DNA of 64,000 nt from Octopus vulgaris. Lineage: Eukaryota. Below, one piece after another: positions 1,611 to 29,523 of the stretch. The stretch covers positions 32,116,001 to 32,180,000 of the forward strand of contig OX597815.1 in assembly GCA_951406725.2 (NCBI GenBank), in the 5' to 3' direction. A program made the position numbers and the translations under genes. Within the stretch, counting starts at the first letter, position 1; every line of letters begins with the position of its first letter. The notes under the pieces were generated by a model. That model ran no database searches and was not told the DNA's origin. It was given only the letters and a program-made list of their open reading frames with translations.

Positions 1611-2016
1611 ATAGAACAAATTAGAAAAGAAAAAGAAAACGTATGAAATAAATGTCTGATGATGAAAATGATAAATGAAAATGAGCTACTTGCCCCACCT
1701 CCAAGCAGCATCACTTCCTTTTTATTCTTTGAATCCTGAGTTTCTCAGAATGTCTGTACCATATTCTTTAACCAGCTCTTTGTGCTGTATGTTGTCTGGT
1801 ACTTCCTTTATGTCACCGTTTACCTTCCTACACTTATATCCAACCTAGTATTTATCTATCTCCTTATTTCCGTTTCTCTGACACCAAAATACATGCATGG
1901 CATCATCCCTCAATGTTTCTTCTTCCCTCCACATTAACAAACCTTGCATCCTTCCATTTTGTCGTTTTGTTCACCAGTTCCATGTCCACTCCTTCGTACA
2001 TCATGCATAACCATAT

Positions 2017-2538
2017 TCAGTGGAAGGGGGAGTTTGTAAGTTCTTGTGTGTCTGTGTCTCTTTTTTCTTTCGTTTTGTGTCGGAGGGGAACGGATGGGTA
2101 TGGCATCTGCGGGGAAAGGTGGGGTTGAGAAGGTATGGATGGGGTGGGTGCGGGTTGGGGTTTCCATTCATCCTGACTTTCCTTCTTTCTCTTCCTTTGT
2201 TTTCTTCCTTCTGCCACCTTCCACTGTTCTTCTTCATTCATCTTTATTTCCTCTTCTGCCTTCTCCGGTTCATTCCCTGCTTCCTCCTGGCTTCCCTTAG
2301 TACATGAAGGGCAGTCTGTTCTAATGAGGCCCTTTTGACCACATTTGAAGCAATGAGGGATTCTGCCCTCTACCCAGACTCTTAACACCGCATCTCCTAT
2401 GATCACCGCTTCTGCCATTTTTTTCAAATTCTCTGTTGTACTTTGCACGATTACATTTAATATTTGGTCCTTCCAGTTCGTAGCCTCTGTCATTTCATTT
2501 GCACTTAATTCTGACTGAGAACAGTATAAAAAGGTCAC
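2017..2538 (-). pseudogene. Non-LTR retrotransposon ORF1/gag-like remnant with zinc knuckle
   Basis: CFKCGQKGLIRTDCP has CX2CX4HX4C spacing with H replaced by L, followed by an acidic/basic tract (WKVAEGRKQRKRK). Confidence 0.55.
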
Positions 2539-2599
2539 AGTATATCATTGCGCATGCGTTACCAAAAGTCAAAAATAAACGTATTTTAGTAATATTTAA

Positions 2600-2830
2600 T
2601 TTTTTCTTTTACTTGTTTCAGACATTGGACTGCGGCCATGCTGGAGTACCATCTTGAAGGGTTTTAGTCGAACACATCGAGCCGAGGACTTACTTTTAAA
2701 GCTCAGTACATATTCTATCGACATCTTTTACCGAACCGCTAAGTTACGGGGACGTAAACACACCAGCAGCAGATGTCAAGCGGTGATGGGGGTGGCAGGA
2801 CAAATACACACACACACACACACACTGTCT
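2600..2830 (-). mobile_element. SINE family A, 3' half
   Basis: Reverse complement of the family A tail (TTACTTGTTTCAG...GCGGCCATGCTGGAG...GCTAAGTTACGGGGACG). Confidence 0.8.
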
Positions 2831-3074
2831 CGCACACATACACTTCAACTAAATATGAAACATTAACTGGATTTTCTTCAAGAGCTACATCGAAGAAGTT
2901 TACCGTTGTTCTCTCACTATGAGATTACGAATGTCTATAGAAAACTTGCTATTTATTTCCATCAGCGAGGAGAACTAAACAACATATTTTTAAGTATATA
3001 ACATTAAAACGACATATTTGAGCTTATATTGCATGTACCAGTATCGAGCTACTTTTTAACTTATCGATGACTTA

Positions 3075-3269
3075 CTCTCTCTTTTACTCTCTTTTACTTG
3101 TGAGTGTGGCCATGCTGGAGCACCGCCTTTAGTCGAGAAAAATCAACCCCAGGACTTATTCTTTGTAAGCCTAGTATTTATTCTATTGGTCTCTTTTGTC
3201 AAACCGGTAAGTTACGGGGACGTAAACACGCCAGCATTGGTTGTCAATCGATGTTGGGGAGAAACACCG

Positions 3270-3331
<62 letters not shown>

Positions 3332-3492
3332 GACGGACTCCTTTCAGTTTCCGTCTACCAAATCCACTCACGAGGCTTTGGTCGGCCCGAGGCTATAGTA
3401 AAAGACACTTGCCCAAGGTGCCACGAAGTGGGACTGAACCCGGAACCATGTGATTCGTAAGCAAGCTACTTACCTCACAACCACTCTACGCC
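3075..3492 (-). mobile_element. SINE family A, near full length, with internal (CA)n(TA)n
   Basis: Head and tail both present, separated by a microsatellite. Confidence 0.9.
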
Positions 3493-3509
3493 TTTTTTTT
3501 TTTAATACT

Positions 3510-3720
3510 GGTTTCAAATTTTAGCACAAGGCCAGAAATTGCGGGGAAGTGAATAAGTCGATTATATCGACTCCAGTTCACAACTGGTACTTATTTTATC
3601 GACTCCGAAAGGATGAAAGGCAAACATGACCTCGGTAGAATTTGAATTCAGGCTTAAAGTCGGACGAAATGCCACTAAGCATTTTTCCCGGCGTGCTAAC
3701 GATTCTGCCAGATCGCTACT
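3510..3720 (-). mobile_element. SINE family B
   Basis: GGTACTTATTTTATCGACTCCGAAAGGATGAAAGGCAAA...GGCGTGCTAACGATTCTGCCAG. Confidence 0.8.
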
Positions 3721-4116
3721 TTTCATTGGTTTTTAATATTAAATGCACGCTTTCTTAACAACTACTTTGCGATATTTCCTCTTACAGGAGTCTGCTTTTT
3801 ATTTAGGGAGTAATTTTTCATTGCTTCATAAATGCACGTTCTTTTAACATAATTGTATTTCATCTTATAGCTCTATATTATGTTTTCCACAGTTGACGTT
3901 CGAGCTTCCTTCGTGTTGCATGTCATATGTATACTTATATACACTATACGAATATGTGATACAATGGTGCGAAATCCATCTAAAACATACTATCTTAAAG
4001 ATAGCGTGTTCGTACTAGTATGTGTGTGTATGTGCGTGTATGTGCGTGTGTGTGCGTGTGTGTGCGTGTGTGTGAGTGAGTGAGTGTGTGTGTGTGAGTG
4101 TGTGTGAGTGTGTGTA

Positions 4117-4149
<33 letters not shown>

Positions 4150-4162
<13 letters not shown>

Positions 4163-4370
4163 ACTTTATGTGTGCATGTTCCCCCGCCACCGCTTGGTAA
4201 CTGGTGTTGATTTGTTTGCGCCCTCGTAACGTAACAGTTCGGCAAAAGACAACGATAGAATAAGTACCAGCCTCAAAAAACTACATGGGTCGATTTGTTC
4301 GACTAAACCCTTCAAGGTGATACCCCAGCATGGCCGCAGACCGATGACTGAAACAAGTAACAGATAAAGG
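4150..4370 (+). mobile_element. SINE family A 3' half (diverged), after a (TG)n tract
   Basis: GTTCGGCAAAAGAC...CCAGCATGGCCGCAG...GACTGAAACAAGTAA. Confidence 0.75.
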
Positions 4371-5437
4371 ATATTATATTAACATTTTCAATGCGTGTAC
4401 GTAAGCTTTTTCTTTATTTCTTAAAATTTTTTGAATCCTTCAAATTAAGGAAGACTTGTATTGTAAATTTATACACGCAATACCAGCTTTGGAATTTAGA
4501 CAACAACGGTGTGATGTTACATTGGAAATTTTACTAATGCCTTACATGCTTTCCCTGTTTCGCTTGCATATTGAATTTGCAGAAGCCATTAAATTATCTC
4601 TTTCTTTGTCTGAAAACCCCAGGTTTCGAAATTATTGCTTTAACACTTACAGCAAAGCAATTTACGTCAATGATTTCACAACGCAAAAAAAAAAGTGAAA
4701 TAAATAATAAATAAATAAATATAATTAAAAAAATCAAAAACTCTGGTGTCTTCGAAGTGAAACCTTTCTTAGGTGTATTTTGGGTGCTGACTCCAAATAT
4801 TCTACCAGTTTTTCCACGTCAGGTTTTCGTTTCAGAAATACAACATACCCATTACATATTGGTGTATTCACTCGAGTACCGGAATTTGCAATTTTATTTG
4901 CACTATCCATCAATTCTAGTGACGTCTCTTTCGGTTTCATCCTTATATCAATCCATAGAAATTCTCCAAGTAAAAGTCTCAAACTAAGCAAATTATTGCA
5001 TTAATTCTCAATTCCTAAGTTCTTAGTGTTAATCTGTACACCATTCTGAATGGAGGTGTCCCGCTTTTCATATTTATTCATCAGATAAAACGTTTTATAT
5101 TTAGCAATTATATTATAAAGTACTTTACAAATTAATCAATGGTATTTTTGTTTTCAATAAACGTTGATATATACATTTAAATTTTAAAATTGCATCGTTT
5201 TTGCTACTACATTTTGTTTTCGTTTGAGATTTGTTCATTCTTATCTGCTGAGGAAAGCTTATCTCGAAACACTTAACAAATTGAATTTTAAATGGTTTAT
5301 TTGTAATTTATGTTTTTGCCATTTCTTTAGCGCTTTCAGAGCAGCGCATTGGCAGAGTCGTTAGAGTGTCAGATAAAAAGCTTACAGTATTTAATATATA
5401 AGTTCAAATCTCACCGATGTCAACTTTGCCATCTATA

Positions 5438-8990: not shown

Positions 8991-9946
8991 TATATATGTG
9001 TGTGTGTGTCCATATATTCCACAGAACCTCCCCAAACTAGACACTAATATTTAAGCGTTATCTTCACCTAACTGAGTGAAAACTAATCAATACCAATGTA
9101 AGTGATCCCCACTAACTATGAACCCACAAATACTTTCTACTGTAAGACATTAGACATTCACGATCAAGCATAACAAATATATCAGTTGCCAAGCGGATTT
9201 CACTATGGTTTCCGTACTATTTGATCCGGCAGTGTCAACAGCGTTAAGAACATAAACGTTTCCTGGGAATTCACCAGATTATTAGTACAAGTATCAACAT
9301 CAGAGTAAACAAATAGTGATAACTTATAGCTACAAAATAGTACTTATAACAAAGAACTTATTCAAAAAGGACATTCAGACAGTACAACAAACATAGACAA
9401 CTAGATATTTTGTTTCTCAATCAATATCACATCACGAACATATTACACCAAAAACAAGCCTAAGAAAGACTAGTCAGTGGGAAAGTACATCTCGTAAACA
9501 ACATCTTCGAACAATGTACACAGATAAGGACAAGCTTAGATCAATATCTATGAAACAAGTCTAATACTATAAAATATATTTACCGAATAAATTGCTTACT
9601 GAACGCAAAATAATAAAATAAAAAAGAAGGATAGAATTAAATTAATTTTTTTTAAAAACTATATATACAAATATATACGTCTATAATTAAAAGAAACAAC
9701 TAGTCCTAACTACAAAGAGACAAAATAATTCATTATAATTAAACAGCCAGCGAATTAGTTACATGTGAACAACTCAAATTACCCTTAATTATAGGATAAA
9801 TATACAAGTAATTTAAATCAACACACACACTTACAAACGACAAACACTGAATACTACTATAACAAAAGTATTATCGAAATAATCTATATAAATAAAACTG
9901 AGAATATGTGTCTGTCTATCTGTTTGTCTGTATGTATGTATGTGTA

Positions 9947-10532
9947 TGTAACGAACTTAGTGAGGTGTGAATATCTTGTCTTGTACTTTCGGGGTACAAG
10001 AAAGCAATCTCTCACTAGCCGTTGCTTTAATAATCCAGAATCTCTACTAGTCAGAAACAACAAGACGCAGACGTAAAATATATATATACTACTTTATTCT
10101 CTTTCTTGGTAACAATGACAATAATTGTGTTATCTGATGTCCTTGGTTCGGGGCGCGCGAGGCTGAAAGTAAATCGATTGTAATATTTACAATGTCCAGC
10201 CGCCAAAAACAGAAAGGGGTCAAGATGGCGTCGAACAGGGAAGTTGAATGTGGTCGGCAACAATTTGGTTAAAGGCATTCGGCCGACTGCTACTATCAAC
10301 CGGAGAGAAAATATATCGTGACCGCCGCCTTCAATCGCTGGGTCCCAAGTTGCCGCTTGCTGCTGCTAGTGGTCAAACGTTCTACGATCCCCCTGCCTTG
10401 GCCAGGGTCGTGCTTCCGGTGGTTCGCGCATGCGCGAGAGGGCCCTTCCTTTCTGTGCCTTGGTAAAGGCACCAACACGCGCGAAATACAAATGGACGGT
10501 GCGCGAGCGCGCGCCGTTGTAGGATCACTACA
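9947..10532 (-). repeat. LTR copy 1 (3' LTR)
   Basis: TGTAACGAAC...GATCACTACA; minus-strand AATAAA at 10093-10098. Confidence 0.9.
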
Positions 10533-10543
10533 GGCTCCCTCCA
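10533..10543 (-). promoter_or_regulatory. Polypurine tract (second copy at 12631-12641)
   Basis: Minus strand reads TGGAGGGAGCC immediately before the LTR start TGTAGTG. Confidence 0.75.
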
Positions 10544-12021
10544 GTGCGTACGCACGAAAGGAAACTTATTGTAGTGACTTTAAAACTCAAGGTGGACACC
10601 AGATAACCAAATAGCACACAATAATATAATGGCAAAATTTATAACATACACAAGAAATTTACTAAAGGAAAAAGAGAAAAAATACTCAATGTGCAAAAAT
10701 CAAGAGTGCATGCATGAAGGTGTATACGTCACAAAGTATAGAACCTTCCGCTGAAGGGAGCGGAAGAAAAGGCAGAACTCACAGTTATTGAACCTAAACG
10801 AAATTAAAATCCAACTTCTCTAAAGGTAGTTGATCCTGCGAAATAGCAGTTAAATCAATTGCTGCAGGAGAGGAAATGGAATTGACAGAAGCTCGCTAGT
10901 AACACAAAAAGGCAAAAGTGCAAACATGCTGGTGTGATGCGCGGCACAGATAATTTTCTGTTAATTACGTGACCAACAAGTGGACTAACAGGGAAAAATA
11001 ATTACGCCTAAACATGGCGCAGCGCATGTGAACATCCGACGTCTATGAGTCGGGAAAAGAATTAGGCTAACGCAAACGTGTTGCAAAAACAAGGCAATAC
11101 ACGTGCGAAGCAAAAGGCGCATGAAATGCAATAAGGGCTTGCCAGACCGAAAAAACAGCAAGAATATGCCAGTGGTTAAGCGATTATATGCCTTGTTCGT
11201 ACAGGAACAAAGGTATGACATGCTGGCGCGTTATAATGGACAAACAACCCTCTCTATGTATACGTGACCGCTAGGGTCTATAGAAATGAGGGGTGTCCAC
11301 AAAAGGCAAATTTAGCATGGAACAAACAAGCGAGAAAAGCATGTGTGACGTATGTATGTGAGAGAGAGCATTTATGTGTGTGTACGTGTGTGCGACAGAA
11401 ATACATACAAGGTGAATGCGAGCAAAATATAAAAACAGCGCATAGAAAAAAATGTCTCTCAGGTGCTATTTCAGACAAGAATTAATTTACCAGTCTGTAA
11501 TAGCCTGATGCACAATAGCAGTTCGTTCTGTAACAGAAATGTTGAAATCACAAAATGCAGATGCCGGTTGAACACATATCGTGTCGCGGTTGTGGCTTCA
11601 ATGCTGTGACAGGTTAACTGGAACAGAAGAAATCTCGTAGATAGTGCTGGGCTGTGAATTCTTGGTGTGCTAATGCACAAACGGCAAGTGGACCAAACTT
11701 CCGCGAGTTGCTATGTACATCTTGTGGAGGTCGACGGTGTTGAAAGGCGACAGTGGTGGAGGAAGGCGACTGTAGTGGACTTGGGACAACATCGTTCTTA
11801 GTGATGATGGCGACGAAGATAGTGACGACGTGAAGTAGACAGACGACGATGATGACGTTCGTCATATTGGCTGTAGAATAAGAAAGAGGCTCCTTCTACA
11901 ACTGTTTGTGGTGGCCGGAAACAAATCGTCGAAAGATGAATGCGTAGAGTTAAATCGTGTTCCGACTTCGCAGAAAAACTGGATTTTTTTGTTGATAAGT
12001 GATCTCTGGTTTTAGACCAGA

Positions 12022-12041
12022 ATCACGTCGGGAGGTCACCA
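12022..12041 (-). promoter_or_regulatory. Primer-binding site, tRNA-Trp type
   Basis: Minus strand TGGTGACCTCCCGACGTGAT versus the classical tRNA-Trp PBS TGGTGACCCCGACGTGAT; 2 nt after the LTR end. Confidence 0.85.
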
Positions 12042-12043
12042 GT

Positions 12044-12630
12044 TGTAACGAACTTGATGTGAGTTATGAATATCTTGTCTTGTACTTTCGGGGTACAAGA
12101 AAGCAATCTCTCACTAGCCGTTGCTTTAATAATCCAGAATCTCTACTAGTCAGAAACAACAAGACGCAGACGTAAAATATATATATACTACTTTATTCTC
12201 TTTCTTGGTAACAATAACAATAAGTGTGTTATCTGATGTCCTTGGTTCGGGGCGCGCGAGGCTGAAAGTAAATCGATTGTAATATTTACAATGTCCAGCC
12301 GCCAAAAACAGAAAGGGGTCAAGATGGCGTCGAACAGGGAAGTTGAATGTGGTCGGCAACAATTTGGTTAAAGGCATTCGGCCGACTGCTGCTATCAACC
12401 GGAGAGAAAATATATCGTGACCGCCGCCTTCAATCGCTGGGTCCGAAGTCGTCGCTTGCTGCTGCTAGTGGTCAAACGTTCTACGATCCCCCCTGCCTTG
12501 GCCAGGGTCGTGCTTCCGGTGGTTCGCGCATGCGCGAGGGCCCTTCCTTTCTGTGCCTTGGTAAAGGCACCAACACGCGCGAAATACAAATGGACGGTGC
12601 GCGAGCGCGCGCCGTTGTAGGATCACTACA
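12044..12630 (-). repeat. LTR copy 2 (shared middle LTR)
   Basis: Near-identical to LTR1 and LTR3; flanked by a PBS on one side and a PPT on the other. Confidence 0.9.
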
Positions 12631-14119
12631 GGCTCCCTCCAGTGCGTACGCACGAAAGGAAACTTATTGTAGTGACTGCAAAACTCAAGGTGGACACCAG
12701 ATAACCAAATAGCACACAATAATATAATTGCAAAATTTATAACATACACAAGAAATTTACTAAAGGAAAAAGAGAAAAAATACTCAATGAGCAAAAATCA
12801 AGAGTGCATGCATGAAAGTGTATACGTCACAAAGTATAGAACCTTCCGCTGAAGGGAGCGGAAGAAAAGGCAGAACTCACAGTTATTGAACCTAAACGAA
12901 ATTAAAATCCAACTTCTCTAAAAGTAGTTGATCCTGCGAAATAGCAGTTAAATCAATTGCTGCAGGAGAGGAAATGGAATTGACAGAAGCTCGCTAGTAA
13001 CACAAAAAGGCAAAAGTGCAAACATGCTGGTGTGATGCGCGACACAGATAATTTTCTGTTAATTACGTGACCAACAGTGGTCTAACAGGGAAAAATAATT
13101 ACGCCTAAACATGGCGCAGCGCATGTGAACATCCGACGTCTATGAGTCGGGAAAAGAATTAATCTAGCGCAAACGTGTTGCAATATTCAAGGCAATACAC
13201 GTGCGAAGCAAAAGGCGCATGAAATGCAATAAGGGCTTGCCAGACCGAAAAAACAGCAAGAATATGCCAGTGGTTAAGCGATTATATGCCTCGTTCGTAC
13301 AGGAACAAAGGTATGACATGCTGGCGCGTTATAATGGACAAACAACCCTCTCTATGTATACGTGACCGCTAGGGTCTATAGAAATGAGGGGTGTCCACAA
13401 AAGGCAAATTTAGCATGGAACAAACAAGCGAGAAAAGCATGTGTGACGTATGTATGTGAGAGAGAGCATTTATGTGTGTGTACGTGTGTGCGACAGAAAT
13501 ACATACAAGGTGAATGCGAGCAAAATATAAAAACAGCGCATAGAAAAAAATGTCTCTCAGGTGCTATTTCAGACAAGAATTAATTTACCAGTCTGTAATA
13601 GCCTGATGCACAATAGCAGTTCGTTCTGTAACAGAAATGTTGAAATCACAAAATGCAGATGCCGGTTGAACACATATCGTGTCGCGGTTGTGGCTTCAAT
13701 GCTGTGACAGGTTAACTGGAACAGAAGAAATCTCGTAGATAGTGCTGGGCTGTGAATTCTTGGTGTGCTAATGCACAAACGGCAAGTGGACCAAACTTCC
13801 GCGAGTTGCTATGTACATCTTGTGGAGGTCGACGGTGTTGAAAGGCGACAGTGGTGGAGGAAGGCGACTGTAGTGGACTTGGGACAACATCGTTCTTAGT
13901 GATGATGGCGACGAAGATAGTGACGACGTGAAGTAGACAGACGACGATGATGACGTTCGTCATATTGGCTGTAGAATAAGAAAGAGGCTCCTTCTACAAC
14001 TGTTTGTGGTGGCCGGAAACAAATCGTCGAAAGATGAATGCGTAGAGTTAAATCGTGTTCCGACTTCGCAGAAAAACTGGATTTTTTTGTTGATAAGTGA
14101 TCTCTGGTTTTAGACCAGA

Positions 14120-14139
14120 ATCACGTCGGGAGGTCACCA
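14120..14139 (-). promoter_or_regulatory. Primer-binding site, tRNA-Trp type (second unit)
   Basis: Identical to 12022-12041. Confidence 0.85.
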
Positions 14140-14141
14140 GT

Positions 14142-14729
14142 TGTAACGAACTTGATGTGAGTTATGAATATCTTGTCTTGTACTTTCGGGGTACAAGAAA
14201 GCAATCTCTCACTAGCCGTTGCTTTAATAATCCAGAATCTCTACTAGTCAGAAACAAAAAGACGCAGACGTAAAATATATATATACTACTTTATTCTCTT
14301 TCTTGGTAACAATAACAATAAGTGTGTTATCTGATGTCCTTGGTTCGGGGCGCGCGAGGCTGAAAGTAAATCGATTGTAATATTTACAATGTCCAGCCGC
14401 CAAAAACAGAAAGGGGTCAAGATGGCGTCGAACAGGGAAGTTGAATGTGGTCGGCAACAATTTGGTTAAAGGCATTCGGCCGACTGCTGCTATCAACCGG
14501 AGAGAAAATATATCGTGACCGCCGCCTTCAATCGCTGGGTCCCAAGTCGCCGCTTGCTTCTGCTAGTGGTCAAACGTTCTACGATCCCCCTGCCTTGACC
14601 AGGGTCGTGCTTCCGGTGGTTCGCGCATGCGCGAGAGGGCCCTTCCTTTCTGTGCCTTGGTAAAGGCACCAACACGCGCGAAATACAAATGGACGGTGCG
14701 CGAGCGCGCGCCGTTGTAGGATCACTACA
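14142..14729 (-). repeat. LTR copy 3 (5' LTR)
   Basis: TGTAACGAAC...GATCACTACA followed by the TGTA TSD. Confidence 0.9.
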
Positions 14730-15057
14730 TGTACATTAGTAAAACTCGAGAACTACCAAACCGATTTCATTCAAATTTTACACATGCCTTACTTAAGGCA
14801 CATACAGAATCAAGGGCCAAAACAATTTTCGACTTCTTGCTTAATGCGAGCCCGGAGCATTCTCCTATCTCTTACACTGTTTCAGTATTACGTGTCAAGA
14901 GTGAAACAATAACATCTATATTGTAATGTGTGATAATACTTTCAGTTTTAATAGTGAAACTACCAATACTTCCTATATGTATATAATACATACATAATGA
15001 AACTATCAATACTGACACTATTATATCAATTATATGCGCATACAAATATATTTTATG

Positions 15058-15088
<31 letters not shown>

Positions 15089-15219
15089 AGTTCAGCAAAA
15101 TTTAGATTCAAATGAATATGGTACTTAAATTAGATGCACCAGAATTTTGTATTTAATAAAATGATGTAGTGCGAAACGATCGTACTAAATTACAGAAATT
15201 ATTCTTGTTGCTTATTTTG

Positions 15220-15267
<48 letters not shown>

Positions 15268-15275
15268 TATATATT

Positions 15276-15316
<41 letters not shown>

Positions 15317-15343
15317 AAGCTTATATTTAGATTTATATATATA

Positions 15344-15714
15344 CTAGCAGTATCCCCCGGCGTTGCTTGGGTTTGTAAGGGAAATAACTATATAAGCATT
15401 TTTAGAGAGTTATAGCCCAAAAATAGCAAAAAATGCATTAAATCGTTTTTTTTTTAAATCGTTGACTCATCGTAGACATTTTTAGAGAGTTACTTCCCTT
15501 ATATAATAGCGAAAAAATGCATTAAAATGGAAAAAAATGATGTTAAATTTTTTTAAATCGTAGACTTATCGTAGACGCGCGCTAATACCCAGAAGGGCTC
15601 GATATGAATCACGACTATAAGATACCCGGTTTTGGTTACACTGCACCGCAAAATGTGGGAGTAGTTAGGAATCTAAATCGTAGGAGACAGACACAACTTC
15701 ACTTTTATATATAA

Positions 15715-15717
<3 letters not shown>
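15344..15717 (-). mobile_element. Non-autonomous Helitron
   Basis: Minus strand starts TCTTTATATATAAAA and ends with a hairpin plus CTAG|T; homologous to 19923-20439. Confidence 0.85.
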
Positions 15718-15803
<86 letters not shown>

Positions 15804-16358
15804 ATATACATATATATATATATTATTATATGTATATATATGTATATATATAAAGCTTATATTTAGATTGCCTGGTGTAAAAGTAACCCTAGCTTGGATC
15901 AATGTTTGGAGGCCTCCTCAGAACTGCACAACGAAATTAGGCTACACAGATACACATATTAACGGGTTTCAGTGATGATATAGTGGATAAGAGCGTAACT
16001 ATTCTGAAGTTTAAGAACAAAGTTTCCGGGTTCGAATCTGCTCTGGTATCAGGGTACATATCCAAGAATAAGACAGCTGACAAGGATCATGGATCACACT
16101 AGATGAAACGTAGAATAGATGTAAATATTAAAACATCTTCTATCTCTAAAATTGGGATTAATAGTTAATAGTCTGGACTATTATAATCGCATTAACAACT
16201 CTCACTACACAAACAAACACACACATACACGTTTATACAACACACACAACATACACGCACTTATTTCTCATTACTGAGTGCTTTTTTCTGACATACGAAC
16301 AGCTGATAATATATACGCATGTATGTATCACACATACACAAATATATGTACGTATGCA

Positions 16359-18842: not shown

Positions 18843-19922
18843 ATTTTGAATTGGTATCTTACAGCTTAAAGCTTCATGCAGAAACCTAGCTCGCCGAGGT
18901 CTTTTAGGCGAATAGAGAGATGCAGGAAGCCCAGGTTGGTTACCGGAAACTGGTTTTGGTCAAGGCGGATCGTATGGTGTTATTAGAAGTGAGTTCGACA
19001 TTCCAGCGACACCAAATGCATCAAAAAGAATTTCTTGAAACACTTGGCTGGACATGAAAGCTGGTGGCAGCTTGCTATCAGGCTGGTCTGTGAAGGTACT
19101 TGCGGCACATCAGATACGTGGCCAGCGATGTGTGTACATTTGTATGTGTGTGTGTGTGTGTGTGCATACCAGCTATGAATGCGTATATGTCGGTGTCTGA
19201 TACCTATGCGTGTGTATCAGCTTTACGTATCTTAGTAGGAGGTGCTTGTGTATGTAAGCTGAAGTGTGGGTGGGAGCTGATGCCATCAGTTCATTGGTGC
19301 GTATGTGCATGTTTGCTAGAGTTTGCGTATATGTGGATGCAACCGTACGTATGGGTGCGGGCTTCTACACAGTTTCCTTCAACAAATTCACTCACTAGGT
19401 ATCGGCCCTACCCCAAGTTACACGTATATGCTAAGTTCCAAACACCAAACTAATAAGGACACAATATTTTACAAAATTCTTTATTATTTAAAAACATTAA
19501 TTGAAACAAAGAAATATGTTAACAGAAGGGTTAACTACCAACTTCAGAACATCTTAAAAGAGAATCTACGCATTTTCCGAGGCGTAAAACACGGTTTTAG
19601 CCCAAGGCAGCTGAAATTTTGTAGGAGGTTCCATGTTTTCAAGAAAGTGAGCTTGTGATTTAATCCAAAATTTGCTGTTTGTAGCGCCTGACAGAAAGTA
19701 ATTAAATATTGAATACCTTCAATCATTGCAAGAGACGTTGAAAAATTTTTCTGATTAAAAAATAATATTGTTAGAATGTGCAATTAGCACATTATTTCGA
19801 CAAAAATAGCTTGTTTTCGCAAAAAAAAATAATAAGAGGACATTTATAATTCAGATTGTTTATGTGTGTATACATGCACATATATGCATATATGTGTATA
19901 TATGTATGGATATATATATATA

Positions 19923-20439
19923 TCTATATATATAAAACTGTAGTTGTGTGAGTGTCTGTCTCCTACGATTTAGATTCCTAACTCCTTCCACATTTTGCGG
20001 TGCAGTTTAACCAAATTCGGGTATCTTATAGTCGTGATTAATATCGAGCCCGTCTGGCTATTAGCGCGCGTCTACGATGAGTCTACGATTTTTAAAATAA
20101 TTTAACATCATTTTTTATTCCATTTTAATGCATAATTTTTCGTGTGTCGATGGCGGCGGAGTTGGCGTCCACGCTCAAACACCTGCACCTGTGTTTGCTT
20201 CTCCCCCTTCTTCCCTCCCTCGTGAAGCTGTGGGGAAGGGAGTTTAAGGAAATCAACGTCGTAATGCGTTGTCAAGGAGACCAGCGTTCTTTTAGAACAA
20301 CGACTTCATGGCTTGAAGACACCAAAACAGAAATGGCTAAGAAAGCCCGAATTGGCATCTATAAGGGAAGTAACTCTCTAAAAATGCTTATATAGTTATT
20401 TCCCTTACAAACCCGAGCAACGCCGGGCGATACTGCTAG
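19923..20439 (+). mobile_element. Non-autonomous Helitron, complete termini
   Basis: A|TC start, subterminal CCCGAGCAACGCCGGG hairpin, CTAG|T end, no TSD. Confidence 0.88.
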
Positions 20440-20805
20440 TATATTATAAAATCCGTTCTGTCTGTGTGTCTTCTAGGATCAAATTTGATATGTAGATACC
20501 GACGGTATCAGGGAGTGTATAAGTCTTGAAAAAATTACAAAAATCGATTCCAGGTGAGAATGCGATCGATAAAGCCGTGGGAACGTGCATTTGTACGCGC
20601 AAGTACATCAGTCGAAATCCGTCTTTTGCTGGTGTATCAAATTTAGGTTAAATCAGTCTTTCTCAAAGGGGAGGCCTATGGGACGGTCGGACAAGTTGTT
20701 TTGAGAAATTTGGTTTAAATGTTTGACAACGCAGCACCGTCCATTGGACGGGGTGGGGGACTTTTGCTCGTGTGTGTATATGTATATATATATATATATA
20801 TATAC

Positions 20806-28725: not shown

Positions 28726-28895
28726 ATATATATATATATATAAATAAATATAAGAGAATGGTCACTATGTGGCTCATTCTAGCACTAGAAAATCCAAAAG
28801 GTTTCAACCACAAAAATACATGTTTCCCGTGAAAGTCAGTACGATTGTTAGCTCATACGAACAGGGCAAATAAAAAATAACAAAAATACAGATTA

Positions 28896-28976
28896 TTTTG
28901 GGACAATTGTTTCGCTATTAATGAATTAAATGTAATTTTACTTACAAAAAACCCACTTGTAGCTCCTCGGCCAAAA
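28896..28976 (-). ncRNA. Hammerhead motif (U4C variant), left arm
   Basis: Exact mirror of 29169-29249. Confidence 0.7.
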
Positions 28977-29168
28977 CTATCTGGATGAAATCCACTCAAT
29001 CACACGCCAGATTTTACCATAACGATAAATACACGTTTCCATGAAAGTTTGGCGCGCTGTTAGTAGGGGCATTTGAATTATAACGTCGGATGTAATCAAT
29101 TGAACCACACGTGTATTTATCGTTATGGTAAAATCTGGCGTGTGATTGAGTGGATTTCATCCAGATAG

Positions 29169-29249
29169 TTTTGGCCGAGGAGCTACAAGTGGGTTTTTTG
29201 TAAGTAAAATTACATTTAATTCATTAATAGCGAAACAATTGTCCCAAAA
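29169..29249 (+). ncRNA. Hammerhead motif (U4C variant), right arm
   Basis: TTTTGG-CCGAGGA-GCTA...TAGC-GAAA-CAATTG-TC-CCAAAA; GUC at 29241-29243. Confidence 0.7.
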
Positions 29250-29523
29250 TAATCTGTATTTTTGTTATTTTTTATTTGCTCTGTTCGTATGAGCTAACAA
29301 TCGTACTGACTTTCACGGGAAACATGTATTTTTGTGGTTGAAACCTTTTGGATTTTCTAGTGCTAGAATGAGCCACATAGTGACCATTCTCTTATATTTA
29401 TTTTTGTATAAAATATTATAATATATAATAAAATATTATAATAATCCAGGTTTCTCGAAGCACTGGGCCACTTGGTGTTGAATAGATATACTATTAAATT
29501 AGTATCTAATTCTCTCACCCTTA

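Follow-up and report, generated by a model that had tools for sequence, protein, structure and literature searches.

A non-coding shared-LTR tandem in Octopus vulgaris, from a family related to a CsRn1-type Gypsy element and with a hypervariable LTR end

Layout of the element

A long terminal repeat (LTR) retroelement occupies positions 9947-14729 of a 64,000-nucleotide stretch of the Octopus vulgaris genome (assembly GCA_951406725.2, contig OX597815.1, positions 32,116,001 to 32,180,000), hereafter the window. The element lies on the minus strand and has the layout LTR-interior-LTR-interior-LTR, with three TG..CA LTRs and the tetramer TGTA on each side. Its features are as follows; family D is a coding family of the same genome that is described further below.

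9943..9946, plus strand, left copy (TGTA) of the target-site duplication (TSD), single in uninterrupted host paralogues
9947..10532, minus strand, 3' LTR of the tandem, 586 bp
10533..12043, minus strand, interior of the downstream unit, 1511 bp, non-coding
10535..10542, minus strand, polypurine tract (PPT) of the downstream unit, also in family D
12022..12041, minus strand, primer-binding site (PBS) of the downstream unit, tRNA-Trp type with a 2-nt insertion
12044..12630, minus strand, middle LTR, shared by both units, 587 bp
12631..14141, minus strand, interior of the upstream unit, 1511 bp
12633..12640, minus strand, PPT of the upstream unit
14120..14139, minus strand, PBS of the upstream unit, tRNA-Trp type with a 2-nt insertion
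14142..14729, minus strand, 5' LTR of the tandem, 588 bp
14730..14733, plus strand, right copy (TGTA) of the TSD

These coordinates confirm the three 586-588 bp TG..CA LTRs and the two 1.51-kb interiors, each with PBS and PPT, that the original prediction had described. The single TGTA duplication of that prediction is also real, because uninterrupted paralogues of the repeat into which the element has inserted carry the tetramer once: it is single in 14 such paralogues, L219 and L220 having TGTA and most others TGTG. Paired TG..CA LTRs, a TSD, a PBS and a PPT, by which membership of the non-autonomous LTR retrotransposons was judged, are all present. Pairs of LTRs within the tandem differ by 5-10 substitutions plus 2-5 gap columns, with the outer two ~1.2% divergent, and the two interiors are 14 substitutions and 2 gap columns apart.

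The PBS of each unit consists of 18 nt complementary to the 3' end of tRNA-Trp, interrupted by the 2-nt insertion, and a tRNA-Trp gene with a matching 3' end was called by ARAGORN in one of four loci tested. The insertion recurs in 8 of 49 interiors, the window's two included. Across the 49 the C-run of the PBS is canonical in 28, carries small insertions in 20 and a substitution in one, whereas copying of the tRNA should restore the canonical form. Sixteen clustered matches to the tRNA-Trp 3' end at G000:C6:58378997-58461520 are probably a tRNA gene array. The PPT is short, with eight purines, one tract preceding each downstream LTR. The 5' LTR (14142-14729, minus strand) has an AATAAA at sense position 435 and motifs which, judged by eye, we take to be NRF1-, ETS- and YY1-like.

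Distribution of the family

The genome searched (2.8 Gb, 227 contigs) contains 154 exact matches to the post-PBS leader of the element, mostly in monomers. Among the 100 matches listed there are two tandem pairs (the window and contig C3) and one 50-bp duplication, and a third tandem, on C18, was found through 72 PBS matches. A single interior is present at each of the 28 other interior loci, and 49 of 67 other copies could be parsed as monomers with both LTRs and a 4-bp TSD, while 27 other LTR loci that were fetched comprise 12 solo LTRs with 4-bp TSDs (11 of them distinct) and 15 monomer ends. Solo, monomer and tandem copies, the counting of which had been proposed, all occur in the family. 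In a tree of 49 interiors the window's two are sisters (support 100/99), and older subfamilies have interiors that are 80-88% identical.

The family had been called young, which holds only in part: its LTR pairs differ by a median of 0.68% outside the hypervariable stretch described below, the outer LTRs of the window copy by ~1.2%, and LTR divergence is a poor clock in this family because many copies were seemingly born with unlike LTRs. Public sequencing runs under four organism labels contain 36-60% of the element's words; four runs from two of the labels were compared with the element, and three contig sets, which we guess to be RNA, cover all 30 of its bins. No description of the family was found in the open-access literature searched, supplements excluded.

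Some further loci are recorded here as observations in their own right. At L166 (G000:C17:61878500-61886000, positions 2010-4716) two 5' halves of the non-coding element, each an LTR with ~780 nt, form a back-to-back inverted pair. Four LTR matches 17-27 kb apart at G000:C21:3543527-3610112, two of which were checked and are solo LTRs with the same flanks, are probably a segmental tandem duplication. The other tRNA-Trp-primed loci L167 and L169-L171 gave no interior match to the window family or to families A, B and D.

Coding remnants and relationship to family D

The longest stop-to-stop frame in the element is 121 aa, the 93-aa interior frame has no Pfam match, and no open reading frame (ORF) is kept across 32 interiors (28 other copies and four from the window), and a conserved small protein in the interior was accordingly rejected. 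The family has nevertheless multiplied in this non-coding state, with interiors of 1465-1562 bp at separate sites. The original prediction that no gag or pol ORF is present therefore stands as to frames, although coding traces remain, namely a piece of pol of 163 nt and a smaller one of RNase H. The segments with recognisable relatives are:

10726..10888, minus strand, pol remnant of the downstream unit, RNase H to integrase linker, ends approximate
12635..12805, minus strand, 3' untranslated region (UTR) segment, 78% to family D
12824..12986, minus strand, pol remnant of the upstream unit, 88% to family D pol, ~codons 606-660, with stops and frameshifts
13576..13953, minus strand, two leader segments, ~82% to the 5' UTR of the older family-D relatives L155 and L161

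Integrase matches in the genome number at least 150, of which 20 were fetched, and three of these belong to family D. This family has reverse transcriptase (RT), RNase H and integrase in Gypsy order, a CHCC gag (CX2HX9CX3C), a GPF motif (GPY/F) and 4-bp TSDs. Its pol frame is open over 1071-1076 codons in 6 of 24 fetched copies; many copies are frameshifted, to which assembly indels may contribute. The D pol matches a predicted protein of Octopus sinensis at 98% identity, and its best named matches outside octopus are mostly flatworm proteins at ~55-60%. The tRNA-Trp PBS, CHCC gag, GPY/F motif and 4-bp TSD are those of the CsRn1 clade of Ty3/Gypsy, to which D is assigned by these motifs and from which the window element differs in encoding nothing. 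The CHCC gag and the marks of the clade are defined in PMC2582038 and PMC3630058, and the clade is present in 9 of 12 cephalopods according to PMC6238403.

Family D and the window element are alike over LTR positions 225-565 (77-78%) and in the 3' UTR (78%), and have PBS and PPT in common, the PBS match of D extending over only 12 nt. The 163-nt pol piece between RNase H and integrase is 88% to D and reaches 97% in an older subfamily, while older D relatives extend the homology into the leader at ~82%. An older non-coding subfamily retains three collinear pol scraps, 91-97% to D and joined at microhomologies, the deletion junctions lying at microhomologies of 5 and about 10 nt. Because of these shared sequences and of collinear scraps so joined, the window family is, by sequence comparison, a deletion derivative of the family-D lineage, and it is probably mobilised by D. 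The original prediction of a non-autonomous, Gypsy-dependent family is thereby supported and narrowed to a CsRn1-type family in the same genome, and the autonomous partner that it had suggested seeking has a counterpart in D, with its related LTR, PBS and PPT.

The pol remnant is not supported as a conserved cis signal, the tests being mixed. It lies within the least variable 30-nt bin of 48 (49 interiors), ranks 11th among 288 windows when old subfamilies are compared with young ones (92.7% against a median of 84.3%) and keeps a 17-mer intact in 45 of 49 copies. Against this, its 45-nt window ranks only 197th among 1415 and occurs unchanged in 20 of 49 copies, other interior blocks are equally conserved between old and young subfamilies, synonymous sites in the pol piece are not unusually fixed between D and B and fall at the 31st and 38th percentiles between D and 11 closer relatives, and the fold is no better than that of shuffles (z +0.63). 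A splice acceptor at the remnant (pyrimidine tract and AG, by eye) was likewise rejected: 10 of 11 closer relatives retain the AG, which both family-B copies lack. No splice joint was seen there in the three presumed-RNA contig sets, in which absence cannot be shown.

The element had also been described as CpG-rich relative to its flanks. The density is indeed 5.4 against 2.6-2.8 per 100 nt; this is mostly an effect of GC content, since the observed/expected ratio of 1.11 falls within the range of the other 2-kb bins (0.60-1.21, median 0.88).

Several other observations concern coding families. Young CHCC-gag Gypsy families (A, B and G) at L091-L110 have LTR pairs 98-100% identical, about 20 family-A integrase matches have the same score, and a ~60-bp tandem array lies near a family-B element (L102, 1790-2605). 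At L168 (G000:C8:104545500-104552500, positions 2887-4128) an LTR of the non-coding family lies next to one of family D, the two separated by 70 nt from the PPT side, which may be a hybrid junction of helper and dependent element.

A hypervariable LTR end

Beside the PBS, between a conserved hairpin and the last 11 bases of the LTR, lies a stretch of ~20 nt that is hypervariable within the family. In the tandem the relevant features are:

9958..9978, minus strand, hypervariable stretch of the 3' LTR, a version unlike that of the other two LTRs
9980..10000, minus strand, 7-bp hairpin adjoining the hypervariable stretch, with a compensatory pair in family D
12055..12075, minus strand, hypervariable stretch of the middle LTR, identical to that of the 5' LTR
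14153..14173, minus strand, hypervariable stretch of the 5' LTR

There are 30 versions of this stretch in 37 LTRs, against a median of 7 and at most 12 for equal windows elsewhere, and it accounts for 84 of 503 within-element LTR differences in the 49 parsed monomers within 21 nt. The 5' and 3' ends of a monomer are mismatched here in 27 of the 49. In the remaining 22 they match, mostly in versions of the element's own, which makes random read error an unlikely source. Short-read contig depth falls at the stretch from tens of thousands to about 200 (one DNA run). The 3' LTR end is the same in seven of the eight D elements that could be parsed, a weak control as D copies are ~99% alike. In one of the 49 parsed monomers, L293, the 5' LTR alone ends in a D-type 16-nt terminus, as would be expected from co-packaging with D.

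Linkage is strong upstream of the stretch (p 2e-6) and absent across it (p 0.70 and 0.72). This was rejected as proof of recombination there, two terminal markers 6 nt apart being likewise unlinked (p 0.70): recurrent mutation fits too, and because linkage also breaks between the terminal markers, template switching and recurrent error are indistinguishable by it. Nor is there a bias toward alteration of the 5' LTR end where the two ends are mismatched (4 against 5). The variability may stem from errors or template switches, either while the first 30 bases of the minus strand are made or at a first-transfer junction, in combination with second-strand transfer between molecules; non-templated additions are noted for Tf1 RT (PMC3185545). 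In a bolder form, which we advance tentatively and regard as rather unlikely, the LTR end would be a template-switch hot spot at which the first 12-30 tRNA-primed bases are swapped among co-packaged RNAs, those of the helper included, and the tandems would be footprints of cDNA recombination. No such feature is described in the open-access literature searched, again excluding supplements, and the hypervariable end is the unexplained part of the finding.

Two copies resemble strand-transfer accidents: L048 has a duplicated LTR end and primer site (half an LTR), and L131 a 50-bp duplication of LTR end and primer site with its junction in or near the hypervariable stretch.

Origin of the tandem

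The middle LTR of the window has an end version in common with the 5' LTR that is absent from 37 other LTRs, and equals the 5' LTR from position 188 on, one base excepted; over this part the 3' LTR differs by an end version of its own and by three private bases. Four private changes lie in the left part of the middle LTR. In the tandem on C18 the middle LTR shows the 202-nt deletion of the 3' LTR on the left and bases of the 5' LTR further right, and in that on C3 it agrees with the 3' LTR at positions 29 and 32 and with the 5' LTR at 271 and 529. In all three tandems, therefore, the middle LTR is 3'-LTR-like on the left and 5'-LTR-like on the right, a polarity that argues for recombination after insertion. 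The intervals in which the switch can lie are wide; with one private base disregarded, those of the three tandems overlap near LTR positions 204-241. The integration in one piece of a tandem already made during retrotransposition, through read-through RNA or a dimer joined in the particle, would account for the enclosure of both units by one TSD and is a route kept open for rice tandems (PMC11899658). Reverse transcription should, however, have made the outer LTRs alike, whereas in the window the 5' LTR matches the middle LTR on the right and is unlike the 3' LTR, at C18 the deletion is missing from the 5' LTR only, and among the three tandems found none occurs at two different sites; we consider this origin highly improbable. 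Of the two mechanisms in the original prediction, inter-LTR recombination thus fits, and read-through retrotransposition fits poorly on account of the polarity.

The interiors add a second asymmetry. They show no differences over sense positions 1-849, all 16 differing columns falling in 850-1464 (p 2e-6 under independence of the columns, an assumption that does not hold), and six of the differences form a patch:

13162..13187, minus strand, six-difference patch between the interiors, the upstream-unit version of which is also in 3 of 47 other copies

Part of this six-change patch is carried by the upstream unit at C18. In fission yeast, Tf1 cDNA inserts upstream of resident Tf2, and the sequence of the resulting tandems changes over within the 3' part and reverts in the central LTR (PMC11042837). 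On balance we favour, with some reserve, a similar account, in which a deletion derivative of a CsRn1-type Gypsy element, likely mobilised by D, was inserted once and later doubled by cDNA recombination at its LTR. In a first step, shown by the collinear scraps and their short microhomologies, most of gag-pol was lost. Family-D proteins would then have packaged the element's RNA, with tRNA-Trp as primer, and integration would have produced a 4-bp TSD. The resulting monomer may have had unlike LTR ends from the start, as seems true of about half of its relatives. Finally, a mosaic cDNA, its first 849 nt from the resident element and the remainder from a sibling RNA, would have recombined into the 5' LTR, without integrase and just upstream of the resident copy. 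Such recombination would leave a single TSD around both units. The right part of the middle LTR would be the former 5' LTR, and the upstream unit would change template and come back to resident sequence within the middle LTR.

Unequal crossing-over in which the 3' LTR of one chromatid or homologue exchanges with the 5' LTR of its counterpart, followed by gene conversion or allelic divergence, would involve the same element and helper and, with conversion, fits almost as well as cDNA recombination. It predicts the middle-LTR polarity seen in three of three tandems, including the composite middle LTR at C18 (202-nt deletion on the left, 5' LTR bases on the right), it agrees with the near-identical interiors at C3, its reciprocal product is the solo LTR (12 of 27 other LTR loci fetched), and it is the default model in PMC5932611 and PMC4558846. 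To account for 0 differences in 849 positions against 16 in 662, and for a patch shared with the family that the upstream units of two tandems carry, it requires at least one further event; we hold this origin to be quite possible, though short of probable. The same polarity would also follow from an assembly artefact, in which reads of two haplotypes were joined through the LTRs and short-read polishing made the identical tract and the patch. No spanning piece occurs in the sequence sets examined, and many D copies are frameshifted, possibly by assembly indels. Yet the flanks are not duplicated, the TSD is intact, both units have private substitutions and two further tandems lie on other contigs, so that a mis-join is very unlikely.

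Several observations weigh against the cDNA-recombination account. No donor of the differing tract was found, the best match among 40 scored of 886 candidates being the neighbouring unit (97%) and the next 96%. Both units have one private base in common inside this tract, the downstream unit also has minority family states near the PPT, and the C3 interiors differ by only two indels and lack a foreign patch. Unequal exchange, moreover, yields identical LTR polarity, and no read or contig crosses a junction in the sequence sets examined. As to the helper, mobilisation by D is inferred indirectly from shared ends and one D-type terminus, and other CHCC-gag families in the genome (A, B and G) have similar primer sites.

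Insertion site and neighbouring repeats

The element interrupts a host repeat whose two parts are:

9883..9946, plus strand, left part, TA-rich start and microsatellite
14730..14960, plus strand, right part, other copies of which are 85-89% identical, end approximate

The microsatellite-bearing host element of the original prediction is thus a genuine short repeat present in many copies, the microsatellite forming its head. Inspection of the 14 paralogues, by eye only, showed no clear 3' end of Helitron type within 260 nt. Elsewhere in the window, 9000-9900 is a decayed dispersed repeat, 70-80% to many loci and possibly a LINE fragment, and a short repeat on the minus strand at 15345-15710, presumably Helitron-like, has a CTAG and hairpin-like end and a relative at ~19860-20450. 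An inverted repeat of 302 nt at 28735-29410 (arms 99% complementary and 72 nt apart) is MITE-like, and 1-626 is an A/T-rich array of 13-bp units.

Comparison with known elements and implications

Shared-LTR tandems are reportedly frequent in Drosophila (PMC5932611), rice (PMC11899658) and sugar beet (PMC13570524) and are also known from the miniature terminal-repeat retrotransposons (TRIMs) of bivalves and cestodes (PMC6934838 and PMC4558846). The original prediction, in which such arrays were placed mainly in plants, was thus right as to plant TRIM-type elements and too narrow as to flies, bivalves and cestodes. The tandems of plant TRIMs, rice, sugar beet and Drosophila likewise have three LTRs, two interiors and one TSD, in families with monomers and solo LTRs, and some sugar beet families have coding remnants (PMC13570524). 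The octopus case differs from the plant and Drosophila tandems in its identifiable partner and in a middle LTR that can be read base by base through the hypervariable end. The Tf1/Tf2 hybrid tandems of fission yeast, which are integrase-independent and Rad52-dependent (PMC11042837), resemble it in that new sequence lies upstream of the resident copy and the 3' part of the upstream unit switches and returns within the central LTR; they are experimental, whereas the octopus tandem is a reconstructed case with a non-coding element and no donor.

Animal TRIMs (ta-TRIM with lennie, PMC4558846; biv-TRIM, PMC6934838; Helenus and Ajax, PMC10886601) are also non-coding with PBS and PPT, form tandems and solo LTRs, have a proposed Gypsy-type helper and, in ta-TRIM and animal Helenus, a 4-bp TSD. 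They differ in size, the octopus monomer (~2.7 kb, LTRs ~590 bp) exceeding the 1-kb limit of two of them, and in that the octopus element is extensively homologous to its helper. No tRNA- or 5S-like LTR segment of the kind in Helenus, Ajax and Cassandra was found by an Rfam scan of 9000-16000 (E<=1), which gave one weak match outside the element and could miss a short decayed remnant. The element works like a TRIM and fits the loose wording '<4 kb' (PMC4558846). With its monomer of ~2.7 kb and LTR of ~590 bp it falls outside the strict definition (<1000 bp, terminal repeats of 100-250 bp; PMC6934838), and it is too small for a large retrotransposon derivative (LARD, >4 kb per unit; PMC4558846). 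General background is given in PMC8967140 and PMC8556966.

The shared-LTR tandem is in itself a known arrangement and of little import. A traceable helper is rare among non-autonomous LTR elements, and the family is hence useful, with helper, deletion junctions and several subfamilies of different age all in one genome. Owing to the hypervariable LTR end, insertion dating by LTR divergence is biased in this family, and the same end is a natural marker of strand-transfer events. If LTR ends are indeed swapped among co-packaged RNAs, nearly every insertion would receive its own barcode, and the tandems would be natural traces, in the germ line of an animal, of cDNA recombination without integrase, for which the demonstrations to date come mainly from yeasts. 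With the marker, the source of shared-LTR tandems, be it exchange between chromosomes or recombination with cDNA, could become testable in an animal.

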